Part shown: in pieces, positions 17,040-62,979 of the stretch
How positions within the stretch are numbered: position 1 is the stretch's first letter
How the letters are laid out: the number at the start of each line of letters is the position of its first letter
NCBI GenBank assembly: GCA_963750915.1
Contig: CAVVSF010000007.1
Span: 1,110,654-1,174,653 of the forward strand
Direction of reading: 5' to 3'
From: an uncultured Acidobacteriota bacterium
Lineage (GTDB): Bacteria; Acidobacteriota; Vicinamibacteria; Vicinamibacterales; 2-12-FULL-66-21
DNA length: 64,000 nucleotides
Position numbers and translations under genes: made by a program
Notes under the pieces: generated by a model
Database searches by the model: none
What the model was told of the DNA's origin: nothing
What the model saw: only the letters and a program-made list of their open reading frames with translations

Positions 17040-18082
17040 ATCCAGTCGTGAATCAGGGTGAAGCGGGCCGGCGGCGCCAGGTACAGGGCCCGGCGATCGC
17101 CATCGTAGGCCAGCGGGATCACGAGCAGTTCGGCCGGCGCCTCGGTTGCGGGATCGAAGGTCCGTTCGGCGAATCGTACGGCCCCGTCATCCGTGGCACT
17201 GCGGCGCTGGAGAAATGCCTGAGCGGCGGCGATGTGCTCCGCGCGCTGTTCGACGATGGTGAGCGACGCCTCTGGCAGCAGCTGGCGCAGGATGAGCAGC
17301 GTCCGCGGGAACAGGCCGCCGCCAACGATCGTGACCTGCGCGACGCGGGGCAGCTCCGCGAGCACACGCCTGAGCGCACGTTCGTGCCGCGCAAGGACGA
17401 AGCGTTGCAGCCACGACGACCTCAGTACCAGACGCTCGAGCCCCTCGAGCGAAAATGCGTCGAGCCAGCGCAGGACCGGCGGCCAGCGGCTGCGACGCTC
17501 GTTTGCCGCGCCGAGCCGCGGCAGCCGGGTCCAGTGCACACCCGGTCGCGAGTGATGTTCGACGTGATAGCCGTCGTTGAAGAAGCACAGGTTGTACGCC
17601 CGGCCGTAGTGACTGGTCGTGCCGCGGGCGTGCTCGTAATGTCCCTGGAGGAAGCACAGCCCGAGGCCGGCGGCATAGCCGGGCAGGTAGATCCCGAAGA
17701 ACACATCGCTGGCGGCAAGCGCCAGCAAAGACCCAGAGCCCTGCCACCACACCGGTCTCCATCGCGAGGAGGCCGCTCCTGTCGCGCCGGCAGGGGCGCC
17801 CGGCGTGGTGATCGAGGTGACGGCGCCGCCAGAGCGTCTGGGGGATGCCGGTCAGCGCGGAGAGGAACAGGGAGTAGGCCGTGTTCAGCCGCGCCGACCG
17901 GAAGAACGGAGTGTGGATGAAGTTGTGCGCGACCGTGTTGGACGTCCACCACAGCCCGATGGCGACCAGCGGAATCGACGGCGCCAAAAGCAGGACGGCG
18001 CCGTACGCGAACGACAACCCGACCAGGCCCCATCCCACCGGGAAAAGCGCAGGAACCCAGTCCGGGCAACGGTGGCGCTCAC
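16967..18082 (-). pseudogene. fatty-acid-desaturase-domain protein fused to a Rossmann-like C-terminal domain; two apparent compensating frame changes
   Basis: AGGAGG, then 6 nt, then GTG at 18080-18082, in the same frame as the C-terminal ORF 16967..17752. His boxes 1 and 2 (HNFIH, HLDHH) lie in the frame of ORF 17187..18038. His box 3 (HVEHH) and VTIVGGGLFPRT lie in the frame of ORF 16967..17752. Total 1116 = 3n. Confidence 0.6.
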
Positions 18083-18100
18083 CTCGTACCTCCTGCGTCG

Positions 18101-19563: not shown

Positions 19564-20097
19564 ATGAAACTTTCAGTCATGGCGACCATGGCGGCGGTTC
19601 TTGCGCTGACGATGCAGGCAACCAGCACGCCGCTGCGCATCGTGTCGTCGCTCGATCTCAACCGCTACCTCGGCAAATGGCACGAGGTCGCACGGCTGCC
19701 CAACCGCTTCCAGAAGCAGTGCGTCAGCGACGTCGTCGCGGAGTACGGGCTGCGCACCGACGGCAGGATCGACGTGCGGAATACGTGTCGTACTGGCGAC
19801 GGTACGACCGACGAGGCGCGGGGCATTGCGCGCAAGGCGGGCGACGGCAGCAACAACGCCGTGCTCCAGGTGCGCTTCGCGCCGGCGATCCTGTCGTTCC
19901 TGCCGATGGTGTGGGGCGACTACTGGGTCATCGGGCTGGGGCCCGACTACTCATGGGCGGTCGTCGGCACGCCCAACCGTCAATTCCTGTGGATCCTGTC
20001 GCGCACGCCGACGCTGAGCGACGCCGCCTACGAGCAGGCGATCGAAGTCGCGAGGGGCAACGGCTTCGATGTGATCAGGGTGATTCGATCCCGGTAG
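19564..20097 (+). CDS. blc: bacterial lipocalin (Blc-like outer-membrane lipoprotein)
   Basis: ORF 19456..20097. Start taken at MKLSVMATMAAVLALT. Motifs YLGKWHEVARLPNRFQ and DYWVIGLGPDYSWAVVGTPNRQFLWILSR. Confidence 0.85.
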   Translation: MKLSVMATMAAVLALTMQATSTPLRIVSSLDLNRYLGKWHEVARLPNRFQKQCVSDVVAEYGLRTDGRIDVRNTCRTGDGTTDEARGIARKAGDGSNNAVLQVRFAPAILSFLPMVWGDYWVIGLGPDYSWAVVGTPNRQFLWILSRTPTLSDAAYEQAIEVARGNGFDVIRVIRSR

Positions 20098-20141
20098 TCC
20101 GGTTGCGCGGTTGCCCGGACGATCGGACGACCGGACTACCG
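20092..20141. terminator. bidirectional hairpin spanning both stop codons of convergent blc and msrA
   Basis: Arms CGGTAGTCCGGTTG (20092-20105) and CGACCGGACTACCG (20128-20141) match at 13 of 14 positions. The interior holds CGGAC-type short repeats of the same unit family as 28395-28433. Confidence 0.6.
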
Positions 20142-20792
20142 AACGACCGAAGTATCAGCAGCGACTCCGACCGGGCAGGAAACGCCGGTGCCGCCGAGCC
20201 CGCAATAGCCGTCGGGATTCTTCGACAAATACTGCTGGTGATAGTCCTCGGCGTAATAGAACTCCGGCGCCGGGACTACTTCCGTCGTGATCGCGCCGTA
20301 GCCGCGCTTCGAGAGCTGCTCCTGGAAGATCGCCAGCGATCGCTCGGCCGCTTCCTGCTGCGCCTCGTCGAAGACATAGATGCCGGAACGGTACTGCGTC
20401 CCGACGTCGTTGCCCTGCCGCATGCCCTGCGTCGGGTCGTGACTCTCCCAGAACGCCTTCAACAGCGCGTCGTAGGAAACCTTCTTCGGGTCGAACACGA
20501 CGAGCACGACTTCGTTGTGGCCGGTCATGCCGCTGCAGACCTCGCGGTAGGTCGGATTCGGCGTGTAGCCGCCGGCGTAGCCAACTGCGGTCGTGTAGAC
20601 GCCCGGCAACTGCCAGAACTTCTTCTCGGCGCCCCAGAAGCACCCCATCCCGAACATGGCTCGCTCGAGACCGTCGGGAAACGGCGGCGACAGCCTGGCG
20701 CCGTTGACATGGTGCGCGGCCGGCACGTCCATCCGCTCCTCGCGTCCCGGTAACACCTGTTCACGCGTCGGCATTCTCGTCTTGCTGAACAA
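20136..20792 (-). CDS. msrA: peptide-methionine (S)-S-oxide reductase
   Basis: ORF 20136..20792. GCFWGAE active-site motif; [26 protein letters not shown]. Confidence 0.92.
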
Positions 20793-20830
20793 GGGGTCTC
20801 CTGTTCTGTTCTTACGATGTCACGGCGTCT

Positions 20831-20937
20831 GGCTCAGGGCTCAGGGCTCACGGCTCAGGAGAGCTTCCCGATCACGGTCGCTGGACTGTGATCGCGAGGC
20901 TCCTCGAGCCTGAGCCTTAAGCCCTGAGCCCTGAGCC
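20831..20937. repeat. inverted arrays of GGGCTCA heptamers (29-nt arms, ~49-nt spacer)
   Basis: Left arm GGCTCAGGGCTCAGGGCTCACGGCTCAGG (20831-20859). The reverse complement of the right arm (20909-20937) is GGCTCAGGGCTCAGGGCTTAAGGCTCAGG. The element abuts the stop codon of the GT-C gene. Confidence 0.85.
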
Positions 20938-22539: not shown

Positions 22540-23237
22540 GTGAAGCGGTACCTCAGGATCAGGCCGATCATGTTGAAGCCGGTCCTCAGCGTTCCCTTGA
22601 GGTTGCCGGTGATCTTCGATTCGCCGACGCGGCCGCGATAGTTGACCGGCACCTCGATCACCTTGAGGCCGCGCTGCAGCGCCAGGATCACCATCTCCGG
22701 GAGGAAGTGCGATGCGCCGACGGTCAGGTCGCCGCGAATCTTCTCGAGCGCGGCGCGGTGCGTCAGCCGCAGCGTGCAGCCGCAGTCGCTCAGCGACGGC
22801 CCGCCGAAGAGCACCTGCAGCAGCTTGGCGACGGTCCAGTTCCCCATTCGCAGGAACCACCCCATGTTCGCCTGGTCCCACACCAGCTCGCGCGTCGTCC
22901 TGGTGCCGCAGACCATGTCGAAGTCGTCGGCATAGGCCAGCAGCTTGAGCACGTCGCGGCCGATGAACGTGCCGTCGGGCTCGGCCATGATGACGATGTC
23001 GCCCGTCGCCTCCTGCAGCCCGCGCCGCAGCGCGAAGCCGTAGCCCTGCCGCGTCTCCTGCACCAGCCGCGCCCGCGTCTGCCGCGCTTCGTCGGCCGTC
23101 CGGTCGCGCGAGTTGTTGTCGACGACGACGACCTCGTCGACGACGTCAACCGAGAAGAAGTCCTCGACGGCGGCGCGGATGTAGCCCTCTTCGTTGTAGG
23201 CGGGCAGGACGACAGAAACGGTCTTGGTGCCGTGCAC
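22536..23237 (-). CDS. family-2 glycosyltransferase (polyprenol-phosphate sugar synthase-like)
   Basis: ORF 22536..23237. Motifs VVLPAYNEE, VVVDNNSRD and AEPDGT (DxD-like). Translationally coupled to the GT-C gene. Confidence 0.88.
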   Translation of the reverse strand: MHGTKTVSVVLPAYNEEGYIRAAVEDFFSVDVVDEVVVVDNNSRDRTADEARQTRARLVQETRQGYGFALRRGLQEATGDIVIMAEPDGTFIGRDVLKLLAYADDFDMVCGTRTTRELVWDQANMGWFLRMGNWTVAKLLQVLFGGPSLSDCGCTLRLTHRAALEKIRGDLTVGASHFLPEMVILALQRGLKVIEVPVNYRGRVGESKITGNLKGTLRTGFNMIGLILRYRFT

Positions 23238-23250
23238 TGGTGAATCTTAC

Positions 23251-23350
23251 CGGGGCTCGGGGTTCGGGGTTCGGGGACAGTCACTGGTGACTGGCACTGG
23301 TGACTGTCCCCGGGGACAGTCACTCGGGACAGTCACCAGTGACTGTCCCC
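23251..23350. repeat. GGGG(C/T)TC heptamer run followed by five copies, in both orientations, of the 11-12-mer GGGGACAGTCAC forming two nested hairpins
   Basis: CGGGGCTCGGGGTTCGGGGTTCGGGG at 23251-23276. GGGGACAGTCAC at 23273-84 and 23312-23, GGGACAGTCAC at 23326-36, and the inverted copy GTGACTGTCCCC at 23300-11 and 23339-50. Confidence 0.85.
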
Positions 23351-23397
23351 GAATGTGAAGTGATCAGTTTCTGCACACTGGGGCTTCGCGAACGTTG

Positions 23398-24393: not shown

Positions 24394-24517
24394 TCGGGCC
24401 GAATCCTACCATGCGGCCGATCCAAGCCCTTGGAGCCTCAATCCTCCACGACCGCTGTCATTCGTCACATTCTTTCGGCAACGGCCACAAACAGGCGTAG
24501 ATTCATCCCGGCTCAGG

Positions 24518-24533
24518 TGGCACTCGCGTTGCT
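24518..24533 (+). promoter_or_regulatory. sigma-54 (-24/-12) promoter upstream of the TonB-dependent receptor
   Basis: TGGCAC-TCGCG-TTGCT matches the TGGCAC-N5-TTGCW consensus exactly. It lies 70 nt upstream of ATG 24603. Confidence 0.6.
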
Positions 24534-28284: not shown

Positions 28285-28394
28285 ACTCCCCTACACGCGC
28301 CCTCGCGCGCCGCTTCGTCGGCGCGCGCCGGGCGCGTGGCTCGCTCGCTACGCTCGCTCGCTGCAACCCAGACGAGTTCTAGAGTACCGGTTGT

Positions 28395-28433
28395 CGACCG
28401 GACCACCGGACGACCGGACTACCGGACCACCGG
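28395..28433. repeat. tandem 8-mer array (CNACCGGA, ~4.9 copies)
   Basis: CGACCGGA CCACCGGA CGACCGGA CTACCGGA CCACCGG, ending 3 nt before the stop of the minus-strand Zn-ribbon gene. Confidence 0.8.
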
Positions 28434-28436
28434 CTC

Positions 28437-29543
28437 TCAGTCCTCCCCCAACACCATCAGAATCAGGACCGCCGCAATCACCGCGACGATCACCAGGAAC
28501 AGGATCTTCCAGAAGCTCTTCGGATAGTCCCCTGCCATCCGCCCGGTCGCGCCGTTGACGACGACCTGGTAGGCCTTGGCGCTGAAGTTGTACGTCAGCA
28601 GCCAGATCGGCACGAGCAGATGCTTGAACGTCTGGCCCGAATAGGTCGGCTGGATGGTCAGGTTGCGGTAGGTGTCGCCGGGAATCTGCGCCGCGCACAG
28701 CTGCCTCACCTGCTCGGTCATCGACTCTTCGGAACGCTTCGCAGCGTCGACGAGCACGATCTGGTAGTGCTCGACGACGAAGCCGGAGACAAACGCCTTG
28801 TCGTACGGCTTGAGGTCGGTGAAGGGAAACGGCTCGATCTGCTTCAGCAGCTCGTGCGAGACGCCGTGCGTGCCTGGAATCGGCTCGTCGTCGAAGAAGT
28901 GCCGGATCTCGCCTGACGCCGGCACCCAGCGGACCTTGCGGACCTGGCGCGTCTGCATCCGTCCGTTCTGGCGGAAGGTCTCGGTCTCGTAGTAGTAGTG
29001 CCCGGCATCGGCCTGCCAGGGGCTGACGACGTGGGCGTCGAACGTCCAGTAGGGAATGTAGAGGCCGTGGACGCGGTCGACGAGGGCGCGCGTCTTGAGG
29101 CGATTCGGCGCCAGCCACTTGCTGGCGTACCAACTACGGATCTGCTCGCGCACCGCCGTCTCGGGCACCGTGAACGGCAGCAGGCTCCTCGGCCGGATCG
29201 GCGCCTTGATCTCCTCGTAGTCGACCAGCTTGGGCGAGCCGCAGAAGTCGCAGTTCTGGCCGACGCGCTCCGGATCGAAGACCGAGATCGCCTGGCAGTT
29301 CTGGCACTGCACCGTGCGTTTCTCGGTCAGCCATCCGCGCTCGGCGTCCGGCACCTCGCGCAGCGCTTTCGCGAGCTCCAGCTCCTCGATCGCGCCGGTC
29401 GCGGCGTCGACGTCGAAAGGCGCCGCCGTGCCGCAGAACGGACACACCAGCAGCTTGCGCGCCGGATTCCACTGCGCCTGGGCACCGCAGGCGGCGCAGG
29501 GGTACTTGTCGAGGGCGGAGAGGTTGGTGGGCTCAGGGCTCAA
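28437..29543 (-). CDS. zinc-ribbon membrane-anchored protein (YdjG-like partner of SPFH proteins)
   Basis: ORF 28437..29543. Two CxxC pairs at the N-terminus (CAACG...CPFCG) and a second ribbon (CQNCQ...CDFCG). C-terminal TM segment (FWKILFLVIVAVIAAVLILMVL). The only upstream in-frame start is TTG at 29541-29543, inside the heptamer array. Confidence 0.75.
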   Translation of the reverse strand: MSPEPTNLSALDKYPCAACGAQAQWNPARKLLVCPFCGTAAPFDVDAATGAIEELELAKALREVPDAERGWLTEKRTVQCQNCQAISVFDPERVGQNCDFCGSPKLVDYEEIKAPIRPRSLLPFTVPETAVREQIRSWYASKWLAPNRLKTRALVDRVHGLYIPYWTFDAHVVSPWQADAGHYYYETETFRQNGRMQTRQVRKVRWVPASGEIRHFFDDEPIPGTHGVSHELLKQIEPFPFTDLKPYDKAFVSGFVVEHYQIVLVDAAKRSEESMTEQVRQLCAAQIPGDTYRNLTIQPTYSGQTFKHLLVPIWLLTYNFSAKAYQVVVNGATGRMAGDYPKSFWKILFLVIVAVIAAVLILMVLGED

Positions 29544-29671
29544 GGCTCAGGGCTCAGGGCTCGTTCAGGCTCAGGGCTTAGGGCTCAGGGCTTAGGGGGC
29601 TCAAGGCTCGGGTTCGGGGCTCGGTTCGGGCTCGCGGCACGGCCTGAGCCCTGAGCCCTGAGCCCTGAGCC
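29529..29671. repeat. long GGGCTCA/GGG(G)TTC heptamer array (about 14 units) followed by four inverted units (CCTGAGC x4)
   Basis: The direct array runs 29529 to about 29632. The inverted arm CCTGAGCCCTGAGCCCTGAGCCCTGAGCC is at 29643-29671. The element fills the whole spacer between the SPFH stop (29674) and the Zn-ribbon start (29543). Confidence 0.9.
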
Positions 29672-29673
29672 GA

Positions 29674-30720: not shown

Positions 30721-30796
30721 GTTGGACACTCTTTCACGAAAGCTCGAACATCGAAGGTCGAGGTTCGAAGGTTAGGCGCGTCGGCAGTTTCACTCG

Positions 30797-30916
30797 TCGG
30801 GGCTCGGGGTTCGGGGTTCGGGGTTCGAAAAGCTTCAGATCTCAGCCGAGCGACTCAGAGCCGCCCGATTAGTTCTGAAGGTTTTCGAGCCCCGAACCCC
30901 GAGCCCCGAACCCCGA
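30797..30916. repeat. inverted arrays of GGGG(C/T)TC heptamers (35-nt arms, 50-nt spacer)
   Basis: Left arm TCGGGGCTCGGGGTTCGGGGTTCGGGGTTCGAAAA (30797-30831). The reverse complement of the right arm (30882-30916) is TCGGGGTTCGGGGCTCGGGGTTCGGGGCTCGAAAA. It lies downstream of msrB and upstream of the SPFH gene. Confidence 0.9.
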
Positions 30917-30964
30917 GGTTGGCTATTCTAAAGCATTCGCCTTCTCCGCAGGCTCCTGCAGGAC

Positions 30965-37122: not shown

Positions 37123-37226
37123 TCGCGGTTATCTTTCTCACGGGACGCGGATCTCACGGATATCACGGATTTCCGGGGCCGCTCGCCGCCGCTCGCTCGC
37201 ATCGGCGTGAGCCGCTCCCGTGCCGA

Positions 37227-38100: not shown

Positions 38101-38574
38101 TCAGGAGGCGCGGCACGCCGCGAGGACGGCCTCGAAGATGCGGGTGTAGCCGGTACAGCGGCACAGGTTGCCGGCGAGCGCGACCCGGACATCGTCGACC
38201 GACGGCTCTGGGGTGCGCTCGAGCAGCGTCAGCGCCGCGAGGACCATCCCCGGCGTGCAGATGCCGCACTGCGCGCCGCCGTGACGGACAAAGGCCTCCT
38301 GCACGGCGTGGAGGCGGCCGCCGTCGGCGACGCCTTCGATCGTCGTGATCGTCGCGCCGCGCGCGTGCAGCAGCGGGAACAGGCAGCTGTTCACGAGCGC
38401 GCCGTCGACGACGACCGAACAGGCGCCGCACTCGCCCTCGCCACAGCCTTCCTTGGTGCCGGTGAGCTGCAGCTGACGCCGCAGCGCGTCGAGCAGGCGC
38501 TCGAGCGGATGGCCGGTCAGCGTGACCTCGGTGCCATTGACGCGGCACCCGACGCTGACCTCCTGCTCACGCAC
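38101..38574 (-). CDS. xanthine dehydrogenase family, [2Fe-2S] (small) subunit
   Basis: ORF 38101..38574. Motifs CGEGECGACSV and QCGICTPGMV...CRCTGY. Confidence 0.92.
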   Translation of the reverse strand: MREQEVSVGCRVNGTEVTLTGHPLERLLDALRRQLQLTGTKEGCGEGECGACSVVVDGALVNSCLFPLLHARGATITTIEGVADGGRLHAVQEAFVRHGGAQCGICTPGMVLAALTLLERTPEPSVDDVRVALAGNLCRCTGYTRIFEAVLAACRAS

Positions 38575-40783: not shown

Positions 40784-40811
40784 GGGAGGTCGCAGGGTAC
40801 TGACCCGACTT

Positions 40812-40870
40812 AGCTGACAGCAAAAGGCTGTGAGCTGAAAGCTGAGAGCTGACAGCTGACAGCTGACAGC
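40812..40870. repeat. AGCTGAN heptamer array with an adjoining inverted copy (hairpin) directly after the YpfJ-like stop codon
   Basis: AGCTGACAGC-AAAAG-GCTGTGAGCT, then GAGCTGA AAGCTGA GAGCTGA CAGCTGA CAGCTGA CAGC up to 40870. The stop codon is at 40871. Confidence 0.8.
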
Positions 40871-41728
40871 CTATTGAAATGTATCGCAGGTCTTCATGTC
40901 ACCGGATTGCAGGCCGCGGCGGAACCAGGTAACGCGCTGCTCGGAGGAACCGTGGGTGAACCGGTCGGGTGCGACGCGGCCGCCCGACATGCGCTGGATG
41001 CGGTCGTCGCCGATCGCGGCGGCGGCGTTCAGTCCTTCCTCGACGTCGCCGGATTCGAGCTCGACCTTGCCCTCCGCGGCGCGGCCCGACCGGGCCGCCG
41101 TGTTGCCCCAGACTCCGGCAAAGCAGTCCGCCTGCAGCTCGAGGCGGACCGAGAGCGCATTCTGCTGATCGGGGCGCGACTGCTGCAGCTGGCGGACCTG
41201 GCCCTCGATGCCCGTAATGCGCTGCACGTGGTGACCGACCTCGTGCGCGAGTACGTACGCCTGCGCGAAATCGCCCGGCGCGCCGAACCGGGCGCGAAGC
41301 TCGTTGAAGAAACCAAGGTCGAGGTAAACCAGCTGGTCGGCCGGGCAATAGAAGGGACCGGTCGCCGACTGGCCCATGCCGCAGGCCGACGGATACGTAT
41401 CACGGAAGATGACGGCGCGGGTCGGACGATAGCGGCCGCCGAGCTGCGCCTGCCAGATCTCCTGGACGTCCCGCATCACCGCGTCGACAAAGAGGGTGAG
41501 CTCCTCTTCCTCCGGTGTCGTCCTCAACTCCCCGGCACCTGCGTTCGCAGAAGGCGGCGCTGTCGCGTCGGGCCCGACCAGCTGGAGGAAGTCGATCCCC
41601 GTCAGCCAGCTCAGGATGAGGACGACCAGCAAGCCGCCGATCCCGAGCCCGCCCATGCGCATCCCGCCCCCGCCCGAGCTGGCGCGAACATCTTCGATGT
41701 TGTCGCGGTTTCCGGCTGTCCATTTCAT
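40871..41728 (-). CDS. YpfJ-family neutral zinc metallopeptidase
   Basis: ORF 40871..41728. N-terminal TM segment; HEVGHH zinc motif; LELQADCFAGVW. Confidence 0.9.
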   Translation of the reverse strand: MKWTAGNRDNIEDVRASSGGGGMRMGGLGIGGLLVVLILSWLTGIDFLQLVGPDATAPPSANAGAGELRTTPEEEELTLFVDAVMRDVQEIWQAQLGGRYRPTRAVIFRDTYPSACGMGQSATGPFYCPADQLVYLDLGFFNELRARFGAPGDFAQAYVLAHEVGHHVQRITGIEGQVRQLQQSRPDQQNALSVRLELQADCFAGVWGNTAARSGRAAEGKVELESGDVEEGLNAAAAIGDDRIQRMSGGRVAPDRFTHGSSEQRVTWFRRGLQSGDMKTCDTFQ

Positions 41729-41762
41729 TGAGAGGTCCTCACGGGCGAGTGAATACTACATC

Positions 41763-41958
41763 GGGTGCGCACGACGGGTGCGCACGTTAGGTGCCCACGG
41801 CAGGTGCTCAGGGCAAGTGATCGCGCCGCGGAGCTGTGACCTGAAACGGCCACCCTAGCCGGTCGCGGCGGACGAATGCAGATACGGTGCCGACCTGGGA
41901 GAACAGACGGTGCGCACCCGTTGTGGGCACCAGCCGTGCGCACCTGACGTGCGCACCA
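41763..41958. repeat. two inverted arrays of four 13-bp units, each with a palindromic GTGCGCAC core (arms ~50 nt, spacer ~90 nt)
   Basis: Core positions are 41765, 41778, 41791, 41804 and 41910, 41923, 41936, 41949, an exact 13-nt period. The reverse complement of the right arm aligns unit-for-unit with the left arm. Confidence 0.9.
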
Positions 41959-41966
41959 GAAGTGAA

Positions 41967-43454
41967 CTACTCCACCACGATGTGCCGCCACTTGCCCTGC
42001 CTGAATCGCAGGACCGACAGGCAGCAGCGGGTGAAGTGGCCGATGACGATGGCGGACCAGACGCCGGAGGCCTCGAGGCGGCCGAGACTCTGGAGCACGG
42101 CGCAGATCCCGAGCGGCAGGACGACCTGCGACACCAAAGTGATGTAGAGCGGACCGCGCGTGTCTCCCGTGCCCTGCAGGCCGCCGGTGAACGTCAGCGC
42201 CACGGTGATGAAGAAGCCGGACACGGCGAGGTAGCGCAGCAGCTGCGTGCCGAGATCCACGACGATGCCTTCATGGAGACCGAAGATCGCGAGCAGGAGC
42301 TTCGGAATGAACAGGAACATGGCGCCGACGATCGCGGCCACCATGACGCCGATGCGGGCGGCGATGTAGACGCCGCGGACGGCGCGCTCGGGCTGGCCGG
42401 CGCCGAGGTTCTGGCCGGCAACGGCGGCGGCGGCGCCCATCAGGCCGACCGACGTCCACGTGATCAGCGCGAACAGCTCGGCGTAGCCGACGGCGTATGC
42501 CGCCTGCGCCTCGGCGCTGTGCGGCAGCGAACCGATGAAGCGCAGCAGCATGACGCCGGCGACGTTCATCGCCACGCCCTGCAGGCCGGCCGGCAGACCG
42601 AAGCGAAACAGCGAGCGGATGATTCCCCAGTCGGGCCGTTTCGACATCGTCTCGGGGAAGTGGACGACGAGACGGCCGCTGAACAGCAGCCACAACCCGA
42701 TCGTCGAGACGATCAGGCTCGCCGCGACGGTGCCGATCGCGGCGCCGCGCGTGCCGAGCGCCGGCAGCGGGCCGTACCCCGGAATGAGGAAGACGTTGAA
42801 GGCAATCGTCAGCACCGTCATCAGGATGCCGAGGCGCAGCGGCGTACGGGCGTCGCCGGCAGCGCGCAGCGCGCCGCCGAGCATGAAGAACATCAGCATG
42901 CCGATGCTGAAGCCAAACATGATGCGCAGGAACGGCAGCGCCTCGGCCTTGACGGCTGATGTCGCGTTGACGAGATCGAGCAGGATTGGCGACAGGAAGT
43001 AGCCAACTGGCGCGAGCACGCCGAGCGAGAGCGCAATCGCGGTCAGAAACGCCTGGTAGACCGTGCGATTGACCTTGTCCGGCTGGTTGGCGCCGGCGAA
43101 GCGGGCAACGAGCACGCCCATGCCGGTGAACAGCGACGCGATGAAGACGATGACGACGAGGAAGATCTGCCAGCTGACGCCGATGGCGGCGTTGGCGGTG
43201 AAGCCGACGTAGTGGCCCACCATCGCGTGATCGATGATGCCCTGCAGCCCGCCGATCGCGTTCTGCAGCACCGTCGGCCAGGCCATCCTCCAGACCGCCG
43301 GCGCGATCGGTCCTTCGACCAGCGACCGATCGAGCTTGCGTACCCGGGTGCCCGCCACGGCCGGCGCCGCCGGCGCCGGAGGATCGATCGCGACATCCTG
43401 GAGCGCCGCGGGAGCGCCTGCCGATGGTGAGGAATCCGGTGCGGACACGGGCAA
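41967..43454 (-). CDS. MATE-family efflux transporter
   Basis: ORF 41967..43454, 495 aa, 12 hydrophobic segments. The N-terminal motif WPTVLQNAIGGLQGIIDHAMVGH is typical of MATE (NorM/DinF-like) proteins. Confidence 0.88.
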   Translation of the reverse strand: MPVSAPDSSPSAGAPAALQDVAIDPPAPAAPAVAGTRVRKLDRSLVEGPIAPAVWRMAWPTVLQNAIGGLQGIIDHAMVGHYVGFTANAAIGVSWQIFLVVIVFIASLFTGMGVLVARFAGANQPDKVNRTVYQAFLTAIALSLGVLAPVGYFLSPILLDLVNATSAVKAEALPFLRIMFGFSIGMLMFFMLGGALRAAGDARTPLRLGILMTVLTIAFNVFLIPGYGPLPALGTRGAAIGTVAASLIVSTIGLWLLFSGRLVVHFPETMSKRPDWGIIRSLFRFGLPAGLQGVAMNVAGVMLLRFIGSLPHSAEAQAAYAVGYAELFALITWTSVGLMGAAAAVAGQNLGAGQPERAVRGVYIAARIGVMVAAIVGAMFLFIPKLLLAIFGLHEGIVVDLGTQLLRYLAVSGFFITVALTFTGGLQGTGDTRGPLYITLVSQVVLPLGICAVLQSLGRLEASGVWSAIVIGHFTRCCLSVLRFRQGKWRHIVVE

Positions 43455-62444: not shown

Positions 62445-62602
62445 CTCAAACCTCATCTCATGCTTCAGGGTCGCGCCGTTATTGTCCCTCAGTTGGGGTG
62501 GGACGACCACGAGCCTTCGCGGCTGCCGCGAGCGCCCGCGCCGACGGCCGCGAGAATGCGCCAAATTGGCGGGATTGGCGCGCCCTCGCGGCCCGTTACC
62601 GG

Positions 62603-62618
62603 GGGAACGGAGGTTGCA
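62603..62618 (+). promoter_or_regulatory. weak sigma-54-like -24/-12 element upstream of the ABM-domain gene
   Basis: gGGAAC-GGAGG-TTGCA has correct GG/GC spacing and a perfect TTGCA. However, it ends only 15 nt before ATG 62633, so the transcript would be nearly leaderless. Confidence 0.25.
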
Positions 62619-62632
62619 CCCGCTGGCGGCCG

Positions 62633-62944
62633 ATGCTCCTGGCCACCATCAAGTTTCGCGCCCAGCCGCACAAGCGGGCGGAAGCACTGGGCGCCGTCGA
62701 TTCGCTGGCGCAGCGGATGCGCGGCTACTCGGGGTGTGGCTGCAGCCGGGTCCTCACCGATTCGGACGACCAGAACGTGCTGCTCATCTCGTCCGAGTGG
62801 CAGGACGCGGGTGCCGCAGAAGTATTCTTCCACTCGCGCGAGTTTCAGATCTTCAAGGGCGTCCGCATCCTGATGCGCGAAGAGCCGGTCATCATCATCG
62901 ACGAGGTGCGGGCCCGGGTCACGCGGCTGATGCGCGCCGGCTGA
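62633..62944 (+). CDS. antibiotic-biosynthesis-monooxygenase (ABM)-like small protein
   Basis: ORF 62498..62944. Start taken at MLLATIKFRAQP, where the ferredoxin-like beta-alpha-beta pattern begins. LLISSEWQDAGAAEVFFHSREF. Confidence 0.65.
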   Translation: MLLATIKFRAQPHKRAEALGAVDSLAQRMRGYSGCGCSRVLTDSDDQNVLLISSEWQDAGAAEVFFHSREFQIFKGVRILMREEPVIIIDEVRARVTRLMRAG

Positions 62945-62979
62945 CGCCGCTCGAACGAAGGCGACGCCGATGCCACGCC

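Follow-up and report, generated by a model that had tools for sequence, protein, structure and literature searches.

Opposed 13-nt repeat arrays between a MatE gene and a peptidase gene of an uncultured Acidobacteriota bacterium: a hypervariable intergenic element and its predicted stem-loop

In a 64-kb stretch of DNA from an uncultured Acidobacteriota bacterium (hereafter the window: 64,000 nt of contig CAVVSF010000007.1, with positions counted from its first letter), the spacer between a MatE-family transporter gene and a putative zinc metallopeptidase gene contains two opposed arrays with a 13-nt period, at 41764-41812 and, inverted, at 41909-41957, which were recognized in the sequence and by two repeat finders. 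The identification of these arrays, whose unit carries a self-complementary 8-nt core, as a hypervariable repeat element is well supported, and so is a lineage-wide habit among Vicinamibacterales-like Acidobacteriota, in which the spacers following stop codons are filled with short tandem repeats, often as inverted pairs. The whole reading that we favour, to which we assign a probability of roughly 0.6, is that of a hypervariable intergenic repeat element driven by slippage and acting as a generic 3'-end or intercistronic stem-loop; the predicted stem-loop role, taken by itself, is tentative and stands at somewhat under even odds. There is no fine conservation of structure: the element changes fast and is an ordinary example of repeats common in its lineage, of a kind already described in other bacteria. 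The locus alone matters little, as one case of a repeat habit apparently common in this soil lineage; the wider pattern is that of five long, repeat-built hairpins within 22 kb, each near a stop codon. A literature search found no description of such a hairpin pattern for Acidobacteriota, and nothing relevant on repeats of this kind in Acidobacteria or Vicinamibacter.

The element and its orthologous spacers

The element and its surroundings comprise the following features, all read on the minus strand.

41967..43454, minus strand: MatE-family transporter gene, upstream (Pfam PF01554, E 2e-42)
41909..41957, minus strand: 5' arm on the transcribed strand, units GGTGCGCAC, GGTGCGCAC, GGTGCCCAC, GGTGCGCAC (sequence, repeat finders, unit parsing)
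41813..41908, minus strand: unique centre separating the arms (alignment of the window, L204, L205 and L001)
41877..41891, minus strand: 15-mer GGCACCGTATCTGCA with GG-N10-GC spacing, best-conserved block of the centre (pattern search, alignment)
41836..41853, minus strand: apical hairpin GUGGCC-GUUUCA-GGUCAC, which caps the long hairpin (folds, alignment)
41764..41812, minus strand: 3' arm on the transcribed strand, units (CT)GAGCACC, GTGGGCACC, GTGCGCACC, GTGCGCACC (sequence, repeat finders, unit parsing)
41751..41763, minus strand: conserved CGATGTAGTATTC right after the last unit (window, L204-L207, L210, L211; partly L001)
40871..41728, minus strand: putative neutral zinc metallopeptidase (YpfJ-like) gene, downstream (Pfam PF04228, E 1e-97)

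The original prediction had located the element between the MatE stop and the peptidase start, and this was confirmed (stop at 41967 and start at 41728, both on the minus strand), the 5' arm starting 9 nt past the stop codon and the 3' arm ending 35 nt before the peptidase ATG. The GC content is approximately 67%, and among named homologues of the peptidase the nearest belongs to a Vicinamibacterales (Acidobacteriota) genome. An 88-aa open reading frame (ORF) across the spacer (41725-41991, minus) was treated as spurious.

The repeat unit is an oriented 10-mer followed by a 3-nt spacer and reads, on the minus strand, GGTGCGCACG in the 5' arm and CGTGCGCACC in the 3' arm; although its core is self-complementary, the unit has a direction owing to its flanking G and C. 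The exact octamer GTGCGCAC occurs at 41765, 41778, 41910, 41936 and 41949, and these are all five copies in the window, whereas shuffled sequences are expected to hold 3.2 scattered copies per window; the clustering of 5/5 octamers within 195 nt far exceeds chance. Seven of the eight cores originally listed were as described; that at 41804 is GTGCTCAG, with two differences from the consensus core that its partner at 41910 does not mirror, so that the innermost unit of the 3' arm is degenerate and has no mirror in the 5' arm. Conversely, the units at 41791 (GTGCCCAC) and 41923 (GTGGGCAC), described as C/G variants of the core, were verified as exact reverse complements. Over a 53-nt inverted repeat (41758-41810 / 41911-41963), the arms are 79% complementary in register and 71% when shifted by one unit. 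Since the core is self-complementary, this arm-to-arm complementarity is mostly automatic.

In order to follow the element in other genomes (designated here by L numbers), close relatives with peptidases at least 90% identical were taken from a 90%-identity protein cluster list; a metagenome scan for peptidase relatives had, among the matches listed, at most 63% full-length identity and was useless for covariation. Units were compared by parsing and by eye on the gene strand, as MAFFT alignments of whole spacers put units in the wrong place where copy numbers differ. Relatives keep the gene order glyoxalase - MatE - peptidase - xanthine dehydrogenase-like, with the following arrays in the orthologous spacer.

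Window: 5' arm GGTGCGCAC, GGTGCGCAC, GGTGCCCAC, GGTGCGCAC; 3' arm GAGCACC, GTGGGCACC, GTGCGCACC, GTGCGCACC
L204: 5' arm GGTGCGCAC, GGTGCGCAC, GGTGCGCAC, GGTGCCGCAC, GGGCCCAC; 3' arm GAGCACC, GTGAGCACC, GTGGGCACC, GTGCGCACC, GTGCGCACC
L205, L206 and L207 (alike): 5' arm GGTGCGCAC, GGTGCCCAC, GGTGCGCAC, GGTGCCGCAC, GGTGCGCAC; 3' arm GCGCACC, GTGCGCACC, GGCACC, GTGAGCACC, GTGTGCACC, GTGGGCACC, GTGCGCACC
L001 (92% identity): 5' arm of five units, 3' arm of two units
L208 and L209 (encoding an identical peptidase): no 5' arm; one-way array of 5 (L208, 140-230) or 8 (L209, 456-581) units, without the centre

The number of units in the 5'/3' arms is therefore 4/4 in the window, 5/5 in L204, 5/7 in L205-L207, 5/2 in L001, 0/5 in L208 and 0/8 in L209. 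The difference between L208 and L209, two metagenome contigs, is variable-number tandem-repeat (VNTR) behaviour. Contigs L210 and L211 start within the array, which suggests that metagenome assemblies break at these arrays and are disrupted by them; arrays varying between otherwise identical strains could also be used as strain markers. Among more distant relatives, L201 and L202 (80-81% identity) contain GGTGC-N3-4 and GCACC units arrayed with a period of 8-9 nt, L003 (82%) contains GTGCCAA-type units, and no array was found in L002, L200 and L203 (81-85%), whose spacers measure only 30-78 nt. These states indicate an element that is old at its site, dispensable and quickly changing. Furthermore, the window and L204 differ in the centre by a single 1-nt indel and in the arms by unit insertions and substitutions, and thus the arms evolve faster than the centre.

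The original prediction had taken the C/G pair for a compensatory change that revealed selection on arm pairing. This interpretation was not borne out by the relatives, which carry unmirrored and out-of-register variants, and unmirrored unit variants are what the original prediction had itself named as speaking against it. The variable core position GTG[N]GCACC takes C, G, A and T among close relatives, so that a complementary partner is expected in about one case in four. When the non-consensus 3'-arm units of the window, L204 and L205 were paired from the outside in (n = 9), two formed Watson-Crick matches (that of the window and the outer one of L205), one a wobble pair, and six were mismatched. 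The two variant units of L204 stand fourth and third from the outside, i.e., out of register, and its two registers are nearly tied (86% vs 84% complementarity). L205 carries the same variant pair as the window in register, second from the outside in both arms and with mirrored spacers; mirroring of inter-unit spacers occurs in both L205 and L204, with 86% complementarity over 50 nt.

The ancestry of the units points in the same direction. The segment ggct-GGTGCCCAC-aacg of the window 5' arm exactly mirrors cgtt-GTGGGCACC-agcc of the L205 3' arm, this mirror piece (26 nt, as in the L205 3' arm) is missing from the window's own 3' arm, and the window's GTGGGCACC-taac corresponds to 'ctGGCACC taac' of L205. 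The window thus owes its in-register match to independent losses and gains of units rather than to a paired substitution, and we read the C/G pair as an inherited or coincidental match and not as selected compensation. GGTGCC/GGCACC is also common to more distant array-bearing relatives; by this comparison, the 'variant' unit may be the older one, and the palindromic GCGCAC derived and expanded. In L014, an acidobacterial locus retrieved by pattern search and likewise located past a stop codon and before the following start, one array has both GGTGCGGAC and GGTGCGCAC units and the opposed array is made up of GTCCGCACC throughout; here, too, the variants are not mirrored. Still, the arms are true inverted copies, as originally proposed in preference to eight independent protein palindromes, and the mirrored spacers of L205 and L204 agree better with an inverted duplication, or with conversion between the arms, than with eight separate protein sites; they do not demonstrate that pairing is under selection. 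The lesson is that, with a self-complementary unit, pairing and occasional matched variants arise without selection; a single mirrored change is not evidence of covariation.

Other arrays in the window

A tandem-repeat scan and direct reading of the window showed further spacers that hold arrays, with units of other sequence.

20793-20937: paired arrays, GGCTCAG x4 / CTGAGCC x4
29530-29673: paired arrays, GGCTCAG-type, ~14 units vs 4
30785-30925: paired arrays, GGGGTTC x4 / GAACCCC x4
23245-23355: paired arrays of 13-nt GGGGACAGTCACT units
40784-40870: one-way array, GTCAGCT x5
28383-28436: one-way array, ACCGGACC x4.6
about 20090-20149: one-way array of 8-nt units
37123-37226: one-way array, CGGATATCA x2.6

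The four other paired elements form long hairpins as well, with RNA fold z-scores of -8 to -11.5, and the variants within them are unmirrored, e.g., GGGGCUC vs GAACCCC in 30785-30925. Gene positions were taken from a crude map based on ORFs rich in GC at third codon positions; the gaps at 17040-18100, 22882-23200, 38193-38566 and 62565-62979 look coding, probably representing missed or mis-started genes, and were not counted as intergenic. According to this map, the array-bearing spacers are all co-directional or convergent and the arrays begin 0-45 nt past a stop codon, with no array in any of the eight divergent spacers of the window (0/8).

The GGGGTTC x4 arrays at 23251-23276 and 30797-30827 contain four runs of four G and, judging by their sequence, could form G-quadruplexes, as could the G-rich heptamers of Xanthomonas and Nostoc.

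Predicted folding, role and alternative explanations

As a minus-strand RNA, the segment 41729-41966 folds into a whole-arm hairpin of -125.2 kcal/mol (z -6.55), and none of 200 shuffled sequences was as stable. The original prediction of a whole-arm hairpin therefore stands; the helices in this fold measure 10, 10, 9 and 7 bp, with small internal loops between them. The DNA fold of the element has a z-score of -5.0. For the window (z -6.6), L204 (-6.6), L205 (-9.1) and L001 (-5.6), the minimum-energy fold is the whole-arm hairpin; L201 has a weaker one (z -2.5), and there is none in L003 and L002. The apical hairpin is kept in L001 through one-sided, wobble-compatible changes. Single arms also fold by themselves at -25 to -31 kcal/mol, with neighbouring palindromic cores pairing, and local hairpins would consequently form first during transcription. 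A search of the whole window against Rfam 15 gave no match at the gathering score, the sub-threshold matches being only meaningless ones to plant microRNA precursors (E up to 1).

In the mechanism that we propose, units would be gained, lost and altered separately in each arm, as the comparison of relatives supports, probably through replication slippage. The arms would derive from an inverted duplication, their likeness being occasionally renewed by arm-to-arm copying (template switching), and pairing between any two such arrays is a direct consequence of the palindromic core. The element would be transcribed within the MatE mRNA or a MatE-peptidase co-transcript, an operon being suggested by the 30-78-nt spacers of relatives. 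During transcription, local 8-bp hairpins would appear first and then a stem of ~36-45 bp, which could act as a barrier to exonucleases, make transcription pause or stop with no need of a U-tract, or serve as the target of a double-strand-specific RNase. The number of units would tune, rather than switch, the expression of the flanking genes.

Several observations weigh against this reading. A terminator scan of 41400-42300 was empty, with no T-run or U-tract 3' of the hairpin. Strong whole-arm hairpins persist in four lineages despite fast unit turnover (z -5.6 to -9.1), which could reflect selection on pairing rather than shared ancestry, and the equal arm counts of the window (4/4) and L204 (5/5) could hint at a coordination of the arms. 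In addition, the orientation bias of the arrays comes from one 64-kb window, where about 8-9 of 28 co-directional or convergent spacers vs 0/8 divergent ones carry an array, a difference that is by estimate not significant.

Another possibility is that the arrays are functionless, i.e., a mutational by-product of slippage-prone hairpin sequence that is tolerated downstream of genes. We consider this unlikely, though it is the likeliest of the alternatives: arrays are present or absent among relatives whose gene order is otherwise kept, copy number differs between contigs encoding an identical protein, different units occupy the same spacer in different relatives, and the lack of arrays in divergent spacers, where promoters lie, would be expected from tolerance alone. 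The consistent adjacency to stop codons and the recurrence of long stable hairpins speak for a role, as does the report that transcripts of Xanthomonas start or stop at such repeats more often than at controls (PMC4692102), and neither amounts to proof of function here.

At the opposite end, opposed-repeat hairpins just past stop codons might be lineage-specific signals for transcript ends or RNA processing that lack a U-tract, with arms re-matched by copying and a unit number that varies in populations and tunes neighbouring genes, the GTGCGCAC element being one of them; we regard this as a speculative idea with rather low odds. Little is known of the transcription-end signals of Acidobacteriota, which abound in soil, and if such hairpins did mark the ends of transcripts or sites of processing, they would make operons and terminators easier to predict in these genomes.

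Selection on the whole-arm hairpin itself, as RNA or as DNA cruciform, with the C/G pair as a compensatory double change that fixes the register, is improbable. Its strongest points are that the mirrored variant is real, that folding of the window and three relatives gives this hairpin as the energy minimum, that the L205 variant pair is in register with mirrored spacers, and that reverting the 3'-arm variant alone moves the predicted fold to another register. However, reverting the variant in one arm alone costs only 4.4-6.1 of 125 kcal/mol, and 0.8 when both arms are reverted, so that a single mismatch is a minor loss of 4-6 kcal/mol; Watson-Crick matches in just 2/9 variant units are near the 1-in-4 expectation, the L204 variants are out of register, and the other paired arrays of the window and L014 have unmirrored variants. 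Besides, the arms are unequal in L205 (5/7) and L001 (5/2), the partner arm is missing from L208 and L209, and arrays are altogether lacking in three relatives. Cruciform extrusion is improbable with ~96-100 bp between the arms, and a DNA cruciform was rejected as the main form, given arms ~96 bp apart.

Even less probable is that the spacer is protein-binding DNA, either a sigma-54 promoter of the peptidase gene at GGCACCGTATCTGCA with GGTGCGCAC as activator sites, or the operator of a dimeric repressor recognizing the dyads GTGCGCAC and GCAC-N5-GTGC. The GG-N10-GC spacing of GGCACCGTATCTGCA and its place as the best-conserved block of the centre are what draw attention to it: it is kept in L204 and L001, and reads GGCATC in L205. 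A sigma-54-type pattern has three matches in the window vs 0.56 expected, the other two lie upstream of genes, and, as one of these encodes a sigma-54 activator, the sigma-54 system is in use here. Compared with TGGCAC-N5-TTGCW, GGCACCGTATCTGCA fits in spacing and orientation but lacks the T ahead of GG, and its -12 box is CTGCA, with CTGC instead of TTGC; the sigma-54-like motif of L201 and L202 lies 13 nt before the ATG and downstream of the ribosome-binding site, a position unfit for a promoter. The letters of GGCACCGTATCTGCA suit a decayed unit junction (GCAC-N5-GTGC) just as well. A period of 13 bp, and not ~10.5 or 21 bp, places successive sites on different helix faces, unlike iterons and response-regulator repeats, unrelated units give the same architecture at other loci, and the arrays are absent or one-armed in relatives.

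The two good sigma-54-type motifs, TGGCAC-N5-TTGCT and GGCAC-N5-TTGCT, are located on the plus strand at 24517-24533 and 2196-2212; downstream of them lie genes for a 1259-aa TonB-receptor-like outer-membrane protein and for the 352-aa sigma-54 activator, and TTTTC(C)TGGCAAT is shared 3' of both. Regarding other promoter signals, the sole promoter-like match of a sigma-70 scan is on the plus strand, opposite both flanking genes. The conserved CGATGTAGTATTC reads TAGTAT in the window and TACCAT in L001, is absent from L208 and L209, and from its sequence may be a candidate -10-like box of the peptidase gene, which is speculative.

Finally, a mobile element, whether a miniature inverted-repeat transposable element (MITE) with iterated transposase sites at its ends or a repetitive extragenic palindrome (REP) or bacterial interspersed mosaic element (BIME) spread by a REP-associated transposase, is very improbable: inverted ends surround a non-coding centre and REP-like hairpins of Stenotrophomonas and Xanthomonas share the GTGCGCACC/GGTGCGCAC stem, but 5/5 exact cores of the 64 kb lie inside this one element, no flanking direct duplication is visible, the centre sequence was found only in orthologues, and relatives display stepwise change in place rather than insertion and empty-site states. 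Both MITE and REP were rejected on these grounds (no copies elsewhere in the window, no target duplication, change in place).

Comparison with known repeats and further observations

The closest known kind of element is the paired inverted heptamer arrays of Xanthomonas, which are the same kind of element and not the same family. Rehm et al. (2015; PMC4692102) described GGGAATC arrays in X. campestris and X. axonopodis, with 70-75 convergent pairs per genome, mostly of four units, located on average 28 nt past the upstream ORF and in 7-8% of cases between divergent ORFs; their length differs between species while the type is preserved, and most are transcribed, with transcript starts and ends occurring there more often than at controls (PMC4692102). 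Our element resembles them in having about four short tandem units per array and convergent arrays able to form a stem-loop, in its intergenic location close to the upstream stop codon, in the rarity of such arrays between divergent ORFs (here in a small sample), and in that length and sequence vary among close relatives while the single or paired type tends to persist. It differs in its 13-nt unit with the self-complementary GTGCGCAC core, without G-runs or G-quadruplex, and in its phylum; moreover, each locus of the window has its own unit instead of one genome-wide consensus. The GGGGTTC loci of the window (30797-30827, 23251-23276) are nearer to the Xanthomonas type than the element studied here.

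The short tandemly repeated repetitive (STRR) heptamers of cyanobacteria and the TAACTGA repeats of Beggiatoaceae (PMC4679880) are likewise abundant, lineage-specific, intergenic short tandem units; unlike our element, they consist mainly of one-way arrays drawn from a few heptamers that recur genome-wide, and opposed arrays are rare, with one indirect set among 169 in Maribeggiatoa (PMC4679880).

With the REP/BIME elements of enterobacteria and pseudomonads, our element shares GC-rich palindromic units placed in transcribed post-gene spacers and excluded from divergent promoter regions, and the role proposed for them, a stem-loop stabilizing the 3' end of the mRNA, is the working model adopted here; a generic stem-loop role has also been considered for the Xanthomonas repeats. 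Conversely, REPs exist as hundreds of near-identical copies spread by a dedicated transposase, whereas in these 64 kb each unit type is confined to one locus, and the element keeps strictly to its 13-nt tandem period and changes in place. No transposase was found among 14 of the ~49 crudely mapped ORFs of the window, which were scanned against Pfam. Like mycobacterial interspersed repetitive units (MIRU), a type of VNTR, the arrays are intergenic within operons and differ in copy number between near-identical strains (5 in L208, 8 in L209); MIRU units, by contrast, measure 40-100 bp and are not in opposed arrays.

A scan of a genome collection for GGTGCGCAC-N4-GGTGCGCAC, a query that fixes the 13-nt spacing, returned more than 116 loci from many GC-rich phyla; it was rejected as a definition of the family, since most were chance matches in coding sequence or REP-like hairpins. 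Such hairpins, of the form GTGCGCACC-GTT-GGTGCGCAC and often after GTAG, were seen in Stenotrophomonas and Xanthomonas (L047, L064, L088, L101, L112 and others), and the stem sequence that they share with our unit probably arose by convergence upon a palindrome that is GC-rich and stable. Arrays with the GTGCGCAC core, one-way and of 13-nt period, were found in L046 (Streptomyces mutomycini), L114 and L033, just downstream of gene ends, and in L045 (Sorangium). Because the query fixed the period, no weight is given to the 13-nt spacing seen in the Streptomyces and Sorangium arrays, and only the recurrence of the core is informative.

In L202, the centre of the orthologous element holds a ~310-bp insertion (2082-2389) bounded by ~30-bp inverted repeats, which encodes only a 79-aa fragment of an IS1595-type transposase zinc ribbon (PF12760, E 3e-16); what entered the hairpin loop here is an insertion sequence in decayed or miniature form. 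Neighbouring spacers of relatives contain unrelated arrays (L002, 1261-1366 and 3893-4209; L202, 402-497; L001, 1298-1322), made of a 15-nt unit x7, ACTGAAG x17, AGACTGA x8, AGGTTCAAG/CCCCTGAAC and GCTCTCA, which differ from those of the window at the same positions.

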